Assembly: GCA_964638435.1 (NCBI GenBank)
Contig: CAZXAY010000002.1
Coordinates: 15,661-47,660 of the forward strand
DNA length: 32,000 nucleotides
Source of the DNA: an uncultured Candidatus Saccharibacteria bacterium
GTDB lineage: Bacteria; Patescibacteriota; UBA1384; JAMDBS01; CAZXAY01
Reading direction: 5' to 3'
Shown here: one piece after another, positions 6,512-22,461 of the stretch
Layout: the number at the start of each line of letters is the position of its first letter
How positions within the stretch are numbered: the stretch's first letter is position 1
Notes under the pieces: model-generated
The model's input: only the letters and a program-made list of their open reading frames with translations
Database searches by the model: none
Told to the model about the DNA's origin: nothing
Translations under genes and position numbers: made by a program

Positions 6512-6853
6512 ATGCCAAAACAAATTACTACAACTAAAGATAAAGAACCAAAGCAAAAAATCCGTATTAGATTAAAAGCTTATGATCATCGGCTAATTGA
6601 CAAGTCAACCAAAAAGATTTTGGAGACGACAACCAGAACGGGTGCACAAATTGTCGGGCCTATTCCACTCCCTACAGAAAAATCATCTATTACAGTGCTA
6701 AAATCCACTTTTGTTCATAAAGATGCGCGAGAACAATTTGAACAACTTATCCACAAACGCTTGATTGACGTTTTAGACCCAAATTCTAAAACTATCGACG
6801 CTCTAATGAATCTGGACCTACCTGCTGGTGTTTCTATCGAAATCAAGACCTAA
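6512..6853 (+). CDS. rpsJ: 30S ribosomal protein S10
   Basis: 113 aa with [15 protein letters not shown] and GPIPLPT motifs. Confidence 0.94.
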
Positions 6854-6877
6854 CGAATCAAACAAATTATCAAATAA

Positions 6878-6910
6878 GTTCAAAAACTGCCCAAAAGGCA
6901 GTTTTTGAAC
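6878..6910 (+). terminator. perfect 14-bp hairpin immediately after rpsJ
   Basis: gttcaaaaactgcc-caaaa-ggcagtttttgaac. The T-tract lies inside the descending arm. It separates rpsJ from the island. Confidence 0.55.
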
Positions 6911-6917
6911 GATACTA

Positions 6918-6946
6918 TTGACTTTTTTAGCATTATAGTGTATAAT
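6918..6946 (+). promoter_or_regulatory. near-consensus sigma70 promoter (TTGACT-17-TATAAT) for the RRM gene
   Basis: -35 at 6918-6923 and -10 at 6941-6946, preceded by TG. About 105 nt of leader follow, with a small GC stem (gcccg...cgggt) and a gtacc/ggtac hairpin next to the start codon. Confidence 0.6.
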
Positions 6947-7057
6947 ATATTTATACGGTTTGAAAGTACTCGTAATTAGCCAGTTGGTTAAGCCCGAGGA
7001 TATCAACCCGGGTCGATCAATTTTTGTATGGTACCTATAAAGGTACAAGGGAATAAA

Positions 7058-7327
7058 ATGGAAGAGAAAAATAAGCTATACGTAGGCAACCTACCTTACA
7101 GCGCAACAAGTGATTCTTTAAAAGAATTATTTGCTGGCTCAGGTGAAGTTGTCGACGCTGTAGTTATTTCAGACAAATTTTCTGGCCGTTCTAAAGGTTT
7201 TGGTTTCGTCACTATGAAAGATGACGCAGCTGCTGAAAAAGCCATTAAAGATACGGACGGAAAAGAAGTCGATGGACGCAATATTAAAGTTAATATTGCT
7301 CGTCCAATGCGTGAAAACAATCGTTAA
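7058..7327 (+). CDS. single-RRM RNA-binding protein (RNP-1/RNP-2 type)
   Basis: MEEKNKLYVGNLPY carries RNP-2 (LYVGNL) and KGFGFVTM is RNP-1. About 89 aa. The ATG at 7058 is preferred over the ORF-track ATG at 7028. Confidence 0.85.
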   Translation: MEEKNKLYVGNLPYSATSDSLKELFAGSGEVVDAVVISDKFSGRSKGFGFVTMKDDAAAEKAIKDTDGKEVDGRNIKVNIARPMRENNR

Positions 7328-7347
7328 TCGATAGTATAGCGCTAGAA

Positions 7348-7387
7348 AAAATCCCACTTCAAGCATTAAGCTAAAGGTGGGATTTTT
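7348..7387 (+). terminator. rho-independent terminator after the RRM gene
   Basis: A 10-bp stem aaaatcccac/gtgggatttt is followed by a T-run (7383-7387). Confidence 0.7.
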
Positions 7388-7437
7388 GTGTTGTTTATCC
7401 TGAGGAAACATATATCACTATTGGTGTCTTATTTGGG

Positions 7438-7466
7438 TTGACAAATATACTACATTAAAGTAAAGT
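7438..7466 (+). promoter_or_regulatory. putative promoter TTGACA-17-TAAAGT for the small ORF
   Basis: -35 at 7438-7443 and -10 at 7461-7466. A gttaaga/tcttaac hairpin (7470-7494) lies in the leader. Confidence 0.45.
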
Positions 7467-7530
7467 ATTGTTAAGAGATTTAACGCATCTTAACAAAAAA
7501 AGACTATTACAGATATAGGGAGGGATTATT

Positions 7531-7800
7531 ATGAGAAAGCATCCGAGAGGTCCTAAAGTCAGGTCAAATAGAAGTACCGTTAGCCCAGCATCAATTATGA
7601 AAGGAGGTGAAGACAACATGTGCGAACGTGGTTTTACACCTGCGATATTGACAATTCATCAACCAGGTGAATGCTTAATCTCGGAATCAACGGATTCTAC
7701 CTCGACATCTGACGATAGTCATCGCGAAATACCCGTTTTGATCCCGAGCACTCAGGAAGAGAGAGTCGGTGGCGACTATGGTCCTTCGGGAAATATATAG
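7531..7800 (+). CDS. small hypothetical protein (89 aa, or 60 aa from an internal start at 7618)
   Basis: SD gggaggg (7518-7524) precedes ATG 7531. A second strong SD aaaggaggtga (7600-7610) precedes the in-frame ATG at 7618. The N-terminal 29 aa are very basic and the rest is acidic and Ser/Thr-rich. G+C is visibly higher than in the ribosomal genes. No recognisable family. Confidence 0.45.
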   Translation: MRKHPRGPKVRSNRSTVSPASIMKGGEDNMCERGFTPAILTIHQPGECLISESTDSTSTSDDSHREIPVLIPSTQEERVGGDYGPSGNI

Positions 7801-7822
7801 AAATATTCGATTCTTACAAAAA

Positions 7823-7865
7823 GCGCCCTGAGCCTTCTGCACAATTGTGCTTAAAGCCCAGGGCG
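7823..7865. terminator. stem-loop between the convergent small ORF and the NTase gene (bidirectional terminator candidate)
   Basis: The outer stem is gcgccctg...cagggcg and encloses the perfect palindrome gcacaattgtgc. Confidence 0.5.
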
Positions 7866-7869
7866 TTCT

Positions 7870-9291
7870 TCATTTGTTTTGTTTATCATAAATTTGATTG
7901 CGTTGGCGGCAATTTTCAAGATATAACGACCACCAATTTTGCAAATCATTAATCAAAACTGGATTGCTTCGAAAATTACGTAGAGAGAACTCTGCAACTT
8001 CTTCATTTTCATCAAGTTTGAGCCAGGTAAAATCTGCATCATGAAGACGATATTCTTCTTTAAATATTCTAAATAACCATTTAAGAAGATTTTTCATCAT
8101 CCAGCGAGCAATACCTTCATCCTCCCCACGTTTTTCTATATTAATGAAAGGATACATTTTATGACAATTTTCTAACAAGTCAAAAATATTACGACACCTT
8201 CCATTGACACTTGAATGATGTTGAAAAACATAATTATACATTTCTATCTGTCTCATCTGATCAAGAAGATAATAAATTTTTTCTAACCTCTCGCAACAAT
8301 CTTCTTTATTAACTACGCGCACCACAAGCAAAAGAAATCTGATGCCCAAGAAGATTTGTAAGTTTTCTTTTTTGAGCAAAAATGAATTTGCCTTACCTTC
8401 ACTTACAAATTTAATCAATCTTTCTAGTGAACGCTCTTTAACAAATCGGTGACCTTTATGGGTAAAAGAATCTTTTCCATAAAGACCGTGGTCTGTTGCA
8501 CACGGCATGATTATTCCACTTTTTACAGATTCTTCGGCTTCTTTAGTATATATCAATCCTTTAGGACCCAATACACACTGATTCATTGTCACATCCCTAC
8601 TCGCTAAGACATGTAAGATATTTTTGTATAACTCTTTACCAGATTGATCTGTTTCGCCAACGAGTTGTAGAAATTTTACGCCAACTTCATCATCCTTTAC
8701 AAGGATATCGAAGTCACGAATTGGAATTTCTGGGGCGATTAAATCACTTTTAAAAAATGCTTTTAATACAAATCGTGCTGGTCCACCTTTATGCAATACC
8801 CCTTTAGCTAGAGGTATTTTTATTTGTAATTTCGATGATTCACAATAGATTAGCCAAATAATGTTTTCATCTCTAGCTATTGTCATCTCAGGGATAGTAT
8901 CTATAATTTGTTGAAGTGAGATAGAAAAAACATTAGATGGTAATATTAATTCTGGTTCAGGAAGACCATCTTTAATAATGTTTACCACATGAATAGCTGT
9001 GCGTGGAATGGAGCCATCTTTAATTTCAATTTCTCTTAGTGAATCCCAAATTAACGAAAAATATGTATTGATAAATTGCTGGACTTTGTAGTCAAAATCA
9101 GTTTTTCTGGATAACCTAACAAGAGCTGCGTAAAAAAGCATTCCCCATTTTTTTGGTTTTGCTTTGTTAACAATATTGATTAGATTATCATATAATTGTG
9201 AAAATTGTCTTAAGGCAACATCAGCTTTATCCGAAAAAATTCTACCACTGCTTACTATATATTTTTCAAGTCCTCTTGGATCTACCACCAT
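7870..9291 (-). CDS. divergent class-II (CCA-adding / poly(A) polymerase family)-like nucleotidyltransferase with an N-terminal extension
   Basis: Motif order is HKGGPARFVL...IRDFDILV (GGxxR...DxD, motif A-like) and then ASRDVTMNQ (RRDFTxNA, motif B-like). FVKERSLERLIKFVSE is a possible degenerate EDPLRxLRAxRF. The start is set at ATG 9291, 5 nt after SD ggaggtga. The ORF-track TTG at 9333 lies inside the promoter -10. Confidence 0.5.
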   Translation of the reverse strand: MVVDPRGLEKYIVSSGRIFSDKADVALRQFSQLYDNLINIVNKAKPKKWGMLFYAALVRLSRKTDFDYKVQQFINTYFSLIWDSLREIEIKDGSIPRTAIHVVNIIKDGLPEPELILPSNVFSISLQQIIDTIPEMTIARDENIIWLIYCESSKLQIKIPLAKGVLHKGGPARFVLKAFFKSDLIAPEIPIRDFDILVKDDEVGVKFLQLVGETDQSGKELYKNILHVLASRDVTMNQCVLGPKGLIYTKEAEESVKSGIIMPCATDHGLYGKDSFTHKGHRFVKERSLERLIKFVSEGKANSFLLKKENLQIFLGIRFLLLVVRVVNKEDCCERLEKIYYLLDQMRQIEMYNYVFQHHSSVNGRCRNIFDLLENCHKMYPFINIEKRGEDEGIARWMMKNLLKWLFRIFKEEYRLHDADFTWLKLDENEEVAEFSLRNFRSNPVLINDLQNWWSLYLENCRQRNQIYDKQNK

Positions 9292-9331
9292 AACTTTCAC
9301 CTCCAAATTGTTCAAGGACAAAGATGACTTC

Positions 9332-9360
9332 AATATAGCAATACACTAAGTGTATGTCAA
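9332..9360 (-). promoter_or_regulatory. consensus promoter (TTGACA-17-TATATT, minus strand) with an embedded palindromic operator-like site
   Basis: On the minus strand the -35 is at 9360-9355 and the -10 at 9337-9332. The spacer and -35 carry the perfect inverted repeat atacac-taa-gtgtat (9341-9355). Confidence 0.55.
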
Positions 9361-9400
9361 GAAAAAAATCCTTTTATTACCTACTGTGGATAAGCATCTA

Positions 9401-9428
9401 TTGACAAAATTATATTTAATGGTAGATT
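9401..9428 (+). promoter_or_regulatory. candidate promoter TTGACA-16-TAGATT for the 263-aa ORF
   Basis: -35 at 9401-9406 and -10 at 9423-9428. An alternative is TTGAAT-17-TATGGT at 9512-9540. Either choice leaves an AT-rich leader that contains an extra SD-like taggaggtg (~9553-9561). Confidence 0.3.
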
Positions 9429-9611
9429 AATATAGATAGGTATATAAGCTTATTGGTTATTTTACGAAAGCCATAGCCTATTTTTATTTGCATATTAAAA
9501 ATTGAATAAATTTGAATATGTGAGCAAAAACAGGTATGGTAAAATTGATAAATAGGAGGTGTTTTCTTTAAAAAAAGGTATTCTGATTCTAAATTTCAAA
9601 GGAGGAATGTT

Positions 9612-10403
9612 ATGGAATCAACCGAGAAAAATCCAATAGGAATTGCCTTCGGACTCAAAAATTCCAGACGTATGTTCTGGATCGAAACCACAGATACTGT
9701 TGAACAAGTCACCAGAGCCCTTATCAAGAGTGTTATCAAGGCAGCACCAGATGCTATAGCCCTTGGGTATGTCGGCGAAAAACCACGTGAGGCAATGCTG
9801 ACTGACCACGTGAAAGATCTGGTTCTCGTGATCGAGGTTGATAAGAAAAAACTCCACGATCTCCGAAGTGAATCCGACAAAAATCTGGAATTGGTAAGCC
9901 TAGTAGACCGCATTAACGCTTTCAAAGAAAGCGGTTGGCAGGCAGAATACTTTACCAGGTCAATGGCTGCAGTCCGCGGCTTTATCAAGACCGATCTTCT
10001 TAATCGTGTGGTTAACCGACGAGCTGTGGTCGATCGTGAAACTAAGATTCATGTCGGCTGGGCCTGGTTCAAAACACTTATCAACCACGCCAGCGAGATT
10101 CGCTGCCTGATCCTCAATGAACCCTTTGGCGCTACAGTGGAAAAAATCATGCCTGCTACTGAGAATAATGTGTCTCAACCGGTTATGGAAGATTCTTTGG
10201 TTTCCACAGAACCACCCATAGTTCAAATCGCATTCATCACCAAAGAAGTGTCTCAGTTGCCAAAACCTATGACCGAGCAAGTTCAGAAATCAGAAACGTT
10301 CGGTACACCACCAGTTAAAGCCAAGAGATCCAGCAAAAGGAAAAAGGTCGTCGAGGCTTCTCAGAATCAGGGCATCATTCAGGAAGTCGAAGTCGGAGCA
10401 TAG
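9612..10403 (+). CDS. hypothetical protein, compositionally foreign (higher G+C), with a basic disordered C-terminal tail
   Basis: SD aaaggagg (9598-9605) precedes ATG 9612. Codon usage (ATC, CTC, GAC, ACC, GTC) is unlike the AAA/ATT/TTA-rich host genes. The C-terminus PPVKAKRSSKRKKVV is Lys/Arg-rich. No family recognised. Confidence 0.6.
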   Translation: MESTEKNPIGIAFGLKNSRRMFWIETTDTVEQVTRALIKSVIKAAPDAIALGYVGEKPREAMLTDHVKDLVLVIEVDKKKLHDLRSESDKNLELVSLVDRINAFKESGWQAEYFTRSMAAVRGFIKTDLLNRVVNRRAVVDRETKIHVGWAWFKTLINHASEIRCLILNEPFGATVEKIMPATENNVSQPVMEDSLVSTEPPIVQIAFITKEVSQLPKPMTEQVQKSETFGTPPVKAKRSSKRKKVVEASQNQGIIQEVEVGA

Positions 10404-10428
10404 TCAGAATCCAAGCACCGAACATTCC

Positions 10429-10457
10429 GCCGTAGTTTTATAACTGCGGCTTTTTTA
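10429..10457 (+). terminator. rho-independent terminator after the 263-aa ORF
   Basis: gccgtagtt-ttat-aactgcggc (one G-U pair) is followed by tttttt (10451-10456). Confidence 0.7.
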
Positions 10458-10466
10458 TTAATAGTA

Positions 10467-10495
10467 TTGACAAGATAATAACTATTTGATAAACT
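10467..10495 (+). promoter_or_regulatory. promoter TTGACA-17-TAAACT re-starting the ribosomal operon at rplC
   Basis: -35 at 10467-10472 and -10 at 10490-10495. A ~110-nt leader carrying direct repeats tttagac x2 and acgatt x2 precedes rplC. Confidence 0.5.
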
Positions 10496-10609
10496 TAAAT
10501 TAGAAATCTTTAGACAATTTACGATTTCATGATAAGCCTAAAAAACGATTCACATAAGGTGGATTGGTTTTAGACTATATTTAATTGTAATGTAAATTTA
10601 GGACAAATT

Positions 10610-11239
10610 ATGGTAGCAATTATGGGTAGAAAATTGGGAATGACTAGAATTTTTGATGCCAATGGTAAGGTAACCCCTGTAACTTTAATTGAGGCTGGCC
10701 CATGTTTTATTACCCAAATTAAAAGTAAAAATAGTGATGGTTATGAAGCTGTTCAAATTGGTTTTGATAAATCCAAACATCCAAAAAAACCACAAATTGG
10801 ACACCTAAATAAAATTAAAAACGAAAAATTAAAAGTAATAAATTTAAAATATTTAAGAGAATACCAAATAAATGAAAACACAACCGATTTAAAAGTTGGT
10901 GATGAAATAAATCTTGATAATTTTAAAGTAAATGATGTAGTCAGCATAACATCTGTTAGTAAGGGTAAAGGTTTTGCAGGCGGGGTTAAGCGTCATGGCT
11001 TTACTACAGGGCCAAAAACACATGGATCTTGTAATTACCGAAAACCAGGTTCAATCGGCGACACACAACCTGCTAGAGTATATAAAGGTAAACGTATGGC
11101 AGGTCATATGGGTAATAAACAAATTACAATTGATAAAACAACCATTGTAGACATTAATTTAGAAAAAAAATTAATTGCTGTTAAGGGTGGTGTGCCAGGA
11201 TCAAACAAAACATTAGTTTATATTAATAAATTTAACTGA
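10610..11239 (+). CDS. rplC: 50S ribosomal protein L3
   Basis: MGRKLGMTRIFD and KGKGFAGGVKRHGF motifs. The start could instead be ATG 10622. Confidence 0.94.
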   Translation: MVAIMGRKLGMTRIFDANGKVTPVTLIEAGPCFITQIKSKNSDGYEAVQIGFDKSKHPKKPQIGHLNKIKNEKLKVINLKYLREYQINENTTDLKVGDEINLDNFKVNDVVSITSVSKGKGFAGGVKRHGFTTGPKTHGSCNYRKPGSIGDTQPARVYKGKRMAGHMGNKQITIDKTTIVDINLEKKLIAVKGGVPGSNKTLVYINKFN

Positions 11240-21417: not shown

Positions 21418-22461
21418 ATGTCAAAATTACAACAAAACAAAAGTTTATTTAATTTAATGATTGTAGTTTTGGGAATAATAGCCATTGGTATATTATTTAC
21501 CACCAATGGAAGCAAACTCACAACAAAAACAACATCTAATTCTGACGACATCAGTCAAAATAATCAAAATCAAGGTGGCGGTGATCTAGATACTAAAAAA
21601 CTTGTTGAAACCATACCTACCCAAAAAATTTTATACAGTATAATAAATGATAAATATACTGATATTTATTCCTATGATTTTGTGACTAATAAACCATCAA
21701 AAGTTTTTACAGACAAAGATGAAGTTGATAAAATTAAAACTATATCATCTATAACAAATGAAGGTAAAGTGCTAGCGTTAATGAGCCAACCTGGACAAGA
21801 ATTTTCTGGCAAACTATATTTAATTAGAACCGATGGATCTGGTAAAAAAGAATTATTAATAGATGATTTTGCTAGTCCACAACCTGCTCAAATATCTCCA
21901 GATGGTAAAAAACTCTGTTATATATTGTTCTCTAATTCTGAGAAAGATTTTGGTTTTAAATTAATTGAGGCTGATAGTGATGGCTCTAACAAAAAACAAC
22001 TTACCACTGATACAACCAATATATCTCAACTAGGCTGGTCCCCTGATTCTAATAGTTTTGTATACATCAAAAGCAATAATAATGATATGTATAAAATTAA
22101 TATCACTACCTTAAAAGAAGAAAAAATTACGACTTTTAATGATGATCAATTACAAAGCTTTTCATGGAGTGAAATTGGAATTATTATTAGTAAATATCAA
22201 AAAGGAAATAATAATTTTAATAATGCCGAAATTTTTACTATTAATCTAACCGATAATTCTACTAAAAAAATTACTAGCAATTCACTTTACGATAATTTTG
22301 CTTATTACGATTCATTGGGTAATTTAGTATATTTGAGTCTTGATTATGATATTAAAGATGCCAATATACTTTATAAACAAGGGAAAATTCAACTATTATC
22401 CACAAATGGGATTACCAAAGAAGTTACTAACGCTAATCAAATATTAGGCTGGAAAAATTAA
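21418..22461 (+). CDS. membrane-anchored TolB-like (PD40 beta-propeller repeat) protein
   Basis: N-terminal TM LFNLMIVVLGIIAIGILFTT. Repeated ISPDGKKLCY and WSPDSNSFVY motifs are typical of PD40/WD40-like propeller blades. Confidence 0.55.
   Translation: MSKLQQNKSLFNLMIVVLGIIAIGILFTTNGSKLTTKTTSNSDDISQNNQNQGGGDLDTKKLVETIPTQKILYSIINDKYTDIYSYDFVTNKPSKVFTDKDEVDKIKTISSITNEGKVLALMSQPGQEFSGKLYLIRTDGSGKKELLIDDFASPQPAQISPDGKKLCYILFSNSEKDFGFKLIEADSDGSNKKQLTTDTTNISQLGWSPDSNSFVYIKSNNNDMYKINITTLKEEKITTFNDDQLQSFSWSEIGIIISKYQKGNNNFNNAEIFTINLTDNSTKKITSNSLYDNFAYYDSLGNLVYLSLDYDIKDANILYKQGKIQLLSTNGITKEVTNANQILGWKN

Follow-up and report, generated by a model that had tools for sequence, protein, structure and literature searches.

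A divergent nucleotidyltransferase family from Patescibacteria related to class II tRNA nucleotidyltransferases, with a conserved catalytic set and an apparently remodelled specificity region

Introduction

Class II tRNA nucleotidyltransferases are the textbook case of template-free, sequence-specific polymerisation. To our knowledge, every characterised member of the class keeps an EDxxR template, and every CCA-adding member keeps a flexible-loop switch. The roles of motifs A to E are known: EDxxR serves as amino-acid template, the flexible loop and the B/A motif are required to change over from CTP to ATP and to add the terminal A, and deletion of the loop is a hallmark of the bacterial CC-adding enzymes (PMC8563995, PMC7014341). 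Here we examine a gene for a divergent relative of these enzymes, located on the minus strand (positions 7870–9291) of a 32,000-nucleotide stretch of DNA, hereafter the window, from an uncultured Candidatus Saccharibacteria bacterium (assembly GCA_964638435.1, contig CAZXAY010000002.1, positions 15,661 to 47,660).

Most proteins of the candidate phyla radiation (CPR)/Patescibacteria are without annotation, and the RNA metabolism of these organisms is poorly known. An earlier note on the window, made from the sequence alone, had read the gene as a CCA-adding or poly(A)-polymerase-like nucleotidyltransferase (NTase) with an atypical N-terminal extension and degenerate specificity motifs, had doubted that it was the housekeeping CCA enzyme, and had drawn an analogy to toxins such as MenT. 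With a family of homologues now assembled around this protein, we describe two features of potential relevance to nucleotide selection by the class. First, the family is homologous to the class II head domain and retains its full catalytic set. Second, the elements that drive the switch between nucleotides appear to be missing, and the amino-acid template is possibly replaced by a split equivalent.

Results

An unannotated family with invariant class II motif residues

The open reading frame (ORF) at 7870–9291 encodes a divergent class II-type nucleotidyltransferase of 473 amino acids (aa) followed by a TGA stop, with the limits proposed earlier and a ribosome-binding site (RBS) ahead of the ATG at 9291. 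Its product is identical to GenBank ACD_58C00239G0003 (473 aa), which has the same start. The strings quoted in the earlier note are all present (HKGGPARFVL at residues 167–176, IRDFDILV at 191–198, ASRDVTMNQ at 230–238 and FVKERSLERLIKFVSE at 283–298), and the GG pair does lie as far from the N-terminus (about 170 aa) as was stated, at residues 169–170; the spacer between the first two strings, given as 16 residues, is in fact 14 (KAFFKSDLIAPEIP).

No meaningful match to the protein was found in Pfam, NCBIfam or PADLOC, and PHROGs gave noise at most. A word-indexed search of 5.8 billion proteins returned the protein itself and one metagenomic homologue, 39% identical, while HMMER, run exhaustively over 1.84 billion cluster representatives with a two-sequence profile, yielded 166 proteins at E ≤ 1e-3, 65 of them below E = 1e-30 and most of them 460–530 aa long. 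All of these roughly 166 representatives are unnamed or 'hypothetical'. Those that carry an organism name are assigned to Berkelbacteria, Kerfeldbacteria, candidate division WWE3 or 'Patescibacteria group', the nearest named homologue coming from Candidatus Berkelbacteria. A contig scan of GTDB representative genomes gave no relative, and tblastn against GenBank phages gave no homologue. The family is unannotated and has so far been seen solely in CPR/Patescibacteria.

Across 90 homologues aligned at 19–41% identity to the window protein, the sole invariant residues are K168, G169, G170, R173, D193, D195, R232, D233, N237 and R291, which correspond to positions of class II tRNA-nucleotidyltransferase motifs A and B and to a motif D arginine. 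Near-invariant residues are P160, E188, P190, G218, E220, A252, G259, G272, K294, E298, K300, G316, W397 and K401. Conservation peaks at residues 161–310 and is lowest (0.26) in the N-terminal 120 residues.

These positions fall within a catalytic head domain that was delimited by AlphaFold2, hhalign and Foldseek to residues 121–312 (8356–8931; all gene features here are on the minus strand) and that includes a three-strand beta-meander at residues 136–162. Motif A (residues 167–198; 8698–8793) reads H-K168-G169-G170-x-x-R173, followed by the 14-residue spacer and E188-x-P190-x-R-D193-x-D195, with E188 and P190 conserved at 97–98% and the DxD aspartates D193 and D195 forming the predicted metal-binding pair. 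A candidate third catalytic carboxylate, E220 (8632–8634), is 98% conserved within G218-x-E220. Motif B (residues 230–238; 8578–8604) has the form x-R232-D233-x-x-x-N237, in which all three named residues are invariant and the first arginine of the canonical RRD is replaced by S, G or T. A motif C-like segment (residues 245–262, with G245, L246, A252 and G259; 8506–8559) was matched by hhalign to the canonical 'iiDp..G..Dl...iiR' segment; G259 is 98% and A252 91% conserved, and the segment aligns in register without the canonical Asp/Gly signature (DxxGGxxDL-like).

Profile and structure comparisons with canonical enzymes

For profile–profile comparison, the canonical enzymes were represented by 35 non-redundant sequences, comprising E. 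coli Cca, PcnB and IMG/VR homologues at 26–59% identity. With the full family profile, hhalign gave a probability of 41.8% (P = 2.7e-4, score 40.5), which became 71% (P = 3.7e-5, score 38.6) with both profiles trimmed to the core, 86% (P = 4.9e-6, score 53.1) with a distant 23-sequence subgroup of the family, and 79% (P = 1.6e-5, score 49.1) with a union profile of 113 sequences. In controls for the trimmed core, column shuffling reached a top score of 23.9 in 59 trials, and reversing the profile gave 15.5. Judging from residues that stay invariant at 19–41% identity and from hhalign scores above those of the shuffled and reversed controls, the motif matches exceed chance.

The union alignment spans residues 165–312 of the window protein and 3–158 of E. 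coli Cca. G169, G170 and R173 are equivalent to G7, G8 and R11 of Cca, D193 and D195 to D21 and D23, E220 to E56 (which is also conserved in PcnB), and R232, D233 and N237 to R91, D92 and N96; residues 245–262 align with motif C, Y271, G272 and D274 with F128, G129 and D131 (the F-G-E-D of Cca), and, past an 11-residue insertion, R291, K294 and F295 with R137, R140 and F141. Motifs A and B, the motif C-like segment and the motif D helix are placed in register with the canonical enzymes by sequence profiles, and the comparisons as a whole show homology to the class II nucleotidyltransferase head with the full catalytic set kept.

An AlphaFold2 model built from the 90-sequence alignment has a mean predicted local distance difference test score (pLDDT) of 94 and a predicted template modelling score (pTM) of 0.93; it was used in place of a model from a two-sequence alignment, which was unusable (pLDDT 36.7). 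A helical bundle (residues 1–120; helices 25–43, 46–62, 68–86 and 95–109, pLDDT about 80–94) and the extra beta-meander both precede the GG strand in this model. Next come strand 165–168, the GG pair, helix 170–179, the DxD strand 195–198 and helix 201–210; E220 lies in strand 219–221, and helix 225–230 leads into the RD of motif B, with strands 275–278 and 281–284 and helix 286–297 making up the motif D region. In the predicted model, the order of secondary-structure elements around the motifs, from strand 165–168 to the RD, matches that of the class II head.

When the model was compared with the PDB by Foldseek, the first eight places went to chains of class II CCA-adding enzymes (human TRNT1 4x4w A and B; Planococcus 7oqx, 6q52, 7otr, 6qy6 and 6qxn; Geobacillus 1miv), with E-values from 6e-3 to 0.12 and probabilities of 0.69–0.96. 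The ninth match was unrelated (E = 1.4), leaving a gap between these enzymes and noise. Against BFVD, viral tRNA nucleotidyltransferase/poly(A) polymerase proteins matched the head domain locally over 133–156 columns, with a root-mean-square deviation of 4.3–5.8 Å, TM-scores of 0.31–0.48 on the target and probabilities up to 1.00. The class II CCA-adding/poly(A)-polymerase relationship that had been read from the motifs is therefore supported by the eight leading Foldseek chains, by the local viral matches and by the hhalign register with E. coli Cca.

Several results weigh against this assignment and the function it implies. None of the 90 family members is picked up by PF01743 or by any other curated model, even at E ≤ 1; no other NTase Pfam family is matched by any of them at that threshold, and a canonical class II hidden Markov model built in this analysis reaches at most 6.6 bits. 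Searches of PDB sequences with phmmer and with the family profile returned just low-complexity helical noise, the family profile finding no CCA enzyme among them, and motif E was not identified in alignments to the canonical enzymes. Global TM-scores against the PDB matches are low (0.23–0.34), which may reflect a different domain arrangement in a multi-domain protein; given these scores, the case rests on the Foldseek ranking, the local matches and the profile–profile P-values. The register of the motif D arginine also varies: the subgroup alignment pairs the invariant R291 with R134 of EDxxR, and because two alignments pair it differently, its placement is uncertain by one helical turn. Finally, the case for an RNA substrate draws only on the activity of known members of the lineage and on a weak neighbourhood trend. 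The earlier note had held that the lack of any head-domain profile match would count against its reading; Pfam does indeed give none, but profile–profile and structure searches overturn that objection.

Family-specific domains and an apparently split motif D

The N-terminal helical domain (residues 1–120; 8932–9291; AlphaFold2 helices, with conserved P46 and W49) is specific to the family. Together with the beta-meander, it accounts for the atypical N-terminal extension claimed earlier, and both parts are absent from canonical class II enzymes, such that the median position of the GG pair is about 174 in the family, compared with about 30 in those enzymes. At the other end of the protein, the C-terminal helical domain (residues 313–473; 7873–8355), with conserved G316, K329, H377, P381, W397, K401 and R464, could not be aligned reliably with the neck, body or tail of canonical enzymes.

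Within the head itself, motif spacing differs in both directions. GG and DxD are 24–26 residues apart in the family and an unvarying 14–15 in canonical enzymes, whereas DxD and RD are separated by 39–53 residues (median 42) as opposed to 67–95 (median 72) in 80 canonical sequences, and in the hhalign alignment a gap of about 24 residues falls precisely between DxD and RD of the family. On this alignment evidence the family lacks about 30 residues that comprise the B/A motif and the flexible loop, a loss that adds to the three differences from canonical enzymes listed in the earlier note.

The specificity motifs are degenerate, as had been suggested. The aspartate of the canonical GGxVRD is replaced by a hydrophobic residue throughout the family, and [ED]DxxRxxR, found in 80 of 81 canonical sequences, occurs at that site in none of the 90 family members. 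The claim that the EDxxR residues are not conserved stands for the contiguous motif but requires refinement, in that the family motif D looks split rather than lost. It occupies residues 271–300 (8392–8481) and consists of Y271-G272-x-D274, an 11-residue beta-hairpin (278–288), R287, R291, K294 and E298-G-K300, with D/E274 at 86%, R287 at 88%, R291 at 100%, K294 at 98% and K300 at 98%; the general pattern is [FY]-G-x-[DE], the hairpin, and then K-x-R-G-x-x-R-L-x-K-x-V-x-E-G-K-A. From these column frequencies, it is possible that the EDxxR template has been replaced by a split equivalent made of D/E274, the hairpin, and R287, R291 and K294.

Gene organisation and genomic contexts

The gene has a complete set of expression signals. 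A near-consensus promoter (9332–9360; TTGACA, a 17-nt spacer and TGC-TATATT with an extended -10; 11 of 12 consensus positions plus TG) is followed by the RBS GGAGGTG (9298–9304), 6 nt upstream of the ATG at 9291. The reading frame can be extended to a TTG at 9333, which was rejected as a start since this spurious codon falls within the -10 element of that promoter. Directly after the stop codon lies an intrinsic terminator (7816–7873), a long GC-rich hairpin followed by UUUUU, with a folding energy of -35.9 kcal/mol (z = -8.15; none of 200 shuffles equally stable); it may also serve the convergent 89-aa ORF described below. The GC content of the gene (0.328, and 0.236 at third codon positions, GC3) is like that of the surrounding core genes and so native in composition. 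With its own promoter, RBS and terminator, native base composition and no conserved neighbour, the gene fits a stand-alone, native unit.

Genomic contexts were compared between the window and eleven other loci (L001–L011 and L174–L176). When ORFs lying within 3 kb of the gene were compared all against all by BLAST across 10 loci, no neighbour proved common to the loci, which argues against a toxin–antitoxin or multi-gene defence system. Several contexts have tRNA- or translation-related neighbours, a trend that is no more than suggestive in genomes this small. In L007, the family gene lies downstream of the spc operon, starts 3 nt downstream of an AsnRS-like gene and is followed by an ITPase-like gene, RsmB and AspRS; in L174 it lies downstream of a tRNA-guanine transglycosylase (TGT) gene, in L004 about 900 nt from a tRNA-Gln gene, and in the window inside the ribosomal-protein cluster, adjoining an RNA recognition motif (RRM) protein. 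In L176, a tRNA-Arg gene that may be co-transcribed with the family gene starts 55 nt past its stop, with a tRNA-Lys gene and HisRS upstream. The 3' CCA is encoded in all four tRNA genes near family members (Arg-CCG, Lys-CTT, Ile-GAT and Gln-CTG; L176 7531–7607, 5002–5077 and 539–615; L004 7043–7116). No paralogue and no canonical PolyA_pol ORF or cca gene was found in the window or in the flanks, which cover only about 10 kb on each side.

Two other arrangements were each seen in a pair of loci. In one lineage, at L010 (11436–12872) and L011 (2451–3887), a 478-aa ORF lies 4 nt past the family gene and is followed by a 115-aa ORF and a NUDIX gene; the 478-aa product has no Pfam match, is not homologous to the family and was unseen at other loci. 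In the Kerfeldbacteria loci L008 and L009 (9246–13935), the co-directional flanks encode a 229-aa metallo-beta-lactamase-fold protein that matches the Apyc1 anti-Pycsar family, a Ser/Thr kinase that starts 2 nt past the stop, and a metallophosphoesterase; this cluster could be a lineage-specific operon.

The window as a whole comes from a low-GC bacterium and covers its core cluster of transcription and translation genes, in which the nucleotidyltransferase gene is the sole convincing minus-strand gene within 32 kb. The gene order is rpoC (3' part), rpsL, rpsG, fusA, tuf, rpsJ, about 3.7 kb of extra DNA, and then rplC onward through the S10, spc and alpha operons with secY, adk, map, rpoA, pheS and pheT. 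The rpsJ–rplC junction of the S10 operon, normally contiguous, is broken by the extra DNA (6853–10610), and since the window contains no N, an assembly gap was rejected as the cause. Four extra units occupy this interval, namely the RRM protein gene, the 89-aa ORF, the nucleotidyltransferase gene on the opposite strand and a 263-aa ORF, each with its own promoter-like and terminator-like signals, and rplC seems to restart from a TTGACA-17-TAAACT site at 10467–10495. Rfam scans of the window and of 6800–10700 found no RNA family, and there are no tRNA genes in the 32 kb.

The RRM gene (7028–7327, plus strand), directly after rpsJ, encodes a 99-aa RNA-binding protein with a single RRM (PF00076, E = 1e-22); upstream of it are a bidirectional terminator-like hairpin with a 15-bp stem (6878–6910) and a near-consensus promoter (6918–6946). 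The 89-aa ORF (7531–7800, plus strand) is equipped with the RBS GGGAGGG, has a promoter-like site at 7438–7466, and converges on the nucleotidyltransferase gene, with which it has the hairpin terminator in common. Its GC content of 0.456 is rich for the genome, and its product is low-complexity and rich in Ser, Thr and Asp; no family match was obtained for it, and the stretch 7438–7800 has no Rfam match. The 263-aa ORF (9612–10403, plus strand) has a good RBS and a terminator at 10429–10450. It has no homologue among 5.8 billion proteins, its tblastn search against GenBank phages was empty, and its composition is foreign (GC 0.46, GC3 0.47, compared with a GC3 of about 0.16–0.26 in adjoining genes); either this is an orphan gene of recent acquisition, or it is no ordinary native gene. 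The RRM protein and both of these ORFs are without counterparts beside relatives of the nucleotidyltransferase gene, and the 89-aa and 263-aa ORFs, being orphans, were rejected as conserved partners. A 347-aa ORF (21418–22461, plus strand) with no Pfam match separates secY from adk, genes that usually lie close together; the relative locus L007 has just a 97-aa ORF in that place.

Discussion

The window protein is probably an active, Mg2+-dependent ribonucleotidyltransferase of the class II tRNA-nucleotidyltransferase/poly(A) polymerase lineage, acting on RNA 3' ends with restricted or altered specificity, a reading we hold with real reservations. D193, D195 and E220 would hold two metal ions, and G169-G170 together with R173 would bind the triphosphate of the incoming nucleotide. 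R232-D233 would read the ribose 2'-OH, so that the substrate would be an NTP rather than a dNTP. By analogy with characterised relatives, the nucleotide would be passed to an RNA primer at its 3'-OH, the primer most likely being the 3' end of a tRNA or tRNA-like molecule. Reading of the base would fall to a rebuilt amino-acid template, with D274 on one side, R287, R291 and K294 on the other and the inserted hairpin between them, and the N- and C-terminal helical domains may replace the canonical body and tail in RNA binding. Because the B/A motif and flexible loop, the drivers of the C-to-A switch, are absent, the enzyme is predicted to be unable to make a full CCA by the canonical mechanism, and would more likely add one kind of nucleotide, whether CC-type, A-type or another tail. 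Its role would be that of a stand-alone accessory enzyme for RNA-end maintenance or tailing. Family rarity and a preprint on canonical CCA enzymes in Patescibacteria favour such an accessory role, and the suggestion in the earlier note that this is not the housekeeping CCA enzyme is plausible.

A more specific form of this proposal is a CPR-specific class II lineage with a split template, no loop switch and new N- and C-terminal RNA-binding domains, which adds a non-CCA 3' extension or acts on a non-tRNA RNA; we advance it tentatively, as a possibility with the balance of expectation against it.

Among the rival explanations, a general RNA-tailing polymerase that marks RNAs for decay, as a functional analogue of poly(A) polymerase I rather than an enzyme of tRNA ends, survives best, and is unlikely. 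PcnB is of the same class II lineage, the loss of CCA-specific switch elements fits untemplated homopolymer addition, and in the window an RRM RNA-binding protein adjoins the gene. However, PcnB retains the canonical EDPVRMLRAVRF motif D and the usual spacing, which the family does not, no PolyA_pol RNA-binding domain was detected in the family, and the RRM neighbour is not conserved beside other members.

Next in order, and also improbable in our estimation, is that the protein is the housekeeping CCA-adding enzyme itself, a hyper-divergent orthologue that displaced canonical cca in Berkelbacteria and some other CPR and makes full CCA by a different switching mechanism. Such a role would suit a single stand-alone gene of native composition among core translation genes, with catalytic residues intact and no canonical PolyA_pol ORF in the window or the fetched flanks (about 10 kb on each side only). 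Yet every class II CCA enzyme studied needs the missing B/A motif and flexible loop to add the terminal A, the family has a sparse, patchy distribution (166 clusters out of 1.84 billion representatives), a 2026 preprint reports canonical class II CCA enzymes in Patescibacteria, and de novo synthesis is not obviously needed where all four nearby tRNA genes already encode CCA.

It is still less probable, and we consider it very doubtful, that the fold acts on a non-RNA acceptor, in small-molecule or protein nucleotidylation or in the synthesis of a nucleotide signal. The substrate-selecting parts (N-terminal domain, C-terminal domain and motif D region) are all family-specific, and the median isoelectric point of the family, 5.8, is unusually acidic for an RNA-binding enzyme. 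Against this, motif B, which reads the ribose 2'-OH, and the motif C and D helices are kept in register, no biosynthetic or signalling partner genes are conserved nearby, and every class II lineage member that has been characterised works on RNA 3' ends (PMC7014341).

Least likely of all, and hardly to be expected, is the MenT-like toxin or anti-phage effector that modifies tRNA acceptor ends and is neutralised by a neighbour such as the 89-aa or 263-aa ORF: the gene is the only one on the minus strand in 32 kb and is flanked by two compositionally foreign orphan ORFs, and one relative lies near a restriction-modification pair and another beside an Apyc1-like metallo-beta-lactamase protein and a kinase, but the analogy of the earlier note gains no support, with no conserved neighbour within 3 kb among 11 contexts and no PADLOC match, the 263-aa ORF has no homologue of any kind, several relatives are embedded co-directionally in housekeeping operons, tblastn finds no phage homologues, and the composition of the gene itself is native.

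Taken as probable enzymes of RNA 3' ends, the family members combine strictly conserved catalytic chemistry with a lost switch and an apparently rebuilt template, and so constitute a natural experiment on how nucleotide specificity is encoded. An enzymatic fold is now assigned to approximately 166 clusters of CPR/Patescibacteria 'hypothetical proteins', which on conservation, structure and profile evidence are best described as placed with the class II nucleotidyltransferases and as a good candidate for biochemistry. If the activity proved to be new, it would amount to a way of modifying RNA 3' ends that has yet to be described in bacteria; if it proved to be CC-, A- or CCA-adding, no known enzyme of that kind would be as divergent, and the family would be of use in enzyme engineering.

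Comparison with known systems

The MenT and AbiEii (DUF1814) NTase toxins resemble the window protein in general chemistry only, that is, in the transfer of nucleotides to the acceptor ends of tRNAs by an enzyme of the Pol-beta superfamily. They belong to a different NTase family and are always paired with an antitoxin gene, unlike the present family, which has neither a conserved partner nor a PADLOC match. The viral head-only tRNA nucleotidyltransferase-like proteins (BFVD A0A481ZD00, A0A7S6U1G4 and others) give the best local superpositions with the window protein, at 14–18% identity; they are 170–220 aa long and do not have the N- and C-terminal domains of the family.

Poly(A) polymerase I (E. 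coli PcnB) is of the same class II lineage and likewise has an N-terminal extension before its GG motif. It differs from the family in keeping canonical motif spacing and EDPVRMLRAVRF, and it is about 30% identical to Cca and easily alignable with it, whereas the family can be aligned only at the profile–profile level. The PcnB-type PolyA_pol RNA-binding and C-terminal domains (PF12627, PF12626) had no Pfam match in any member.

The bacterial CC-adding enzymes (Aquifex, Deinococcus and other split CC/A systems) lack the flexible-loop region, as does the family. In these enzymes, unlike the family, all five core motifs including EDxxR are kept and membership of PF01743 is retained; the family deletion (about 30 residues) is larger, and the B/A motif has gone with it. 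We know of no partner A-adding enzyme for the genomes that carry the family.

From the class II CCA-adding enzymes (bacterial Cca, Geobacillus 1MIV, Planococcus 6QY6 and human TRNT1 4X4W), the family is set apart in that motif E and the canonical body and tail domains are not recognisable in it, and in that it falls below detection by the PF01743 PolyA_pol profile that defines their family. With these same enzymes it has in common the head-domain fold, an all-helical C-terminal part, and GGxxR, DxD, a third carboxylate, RDxxxN, a motif C-like segment and a motif D helix, all in the same order.

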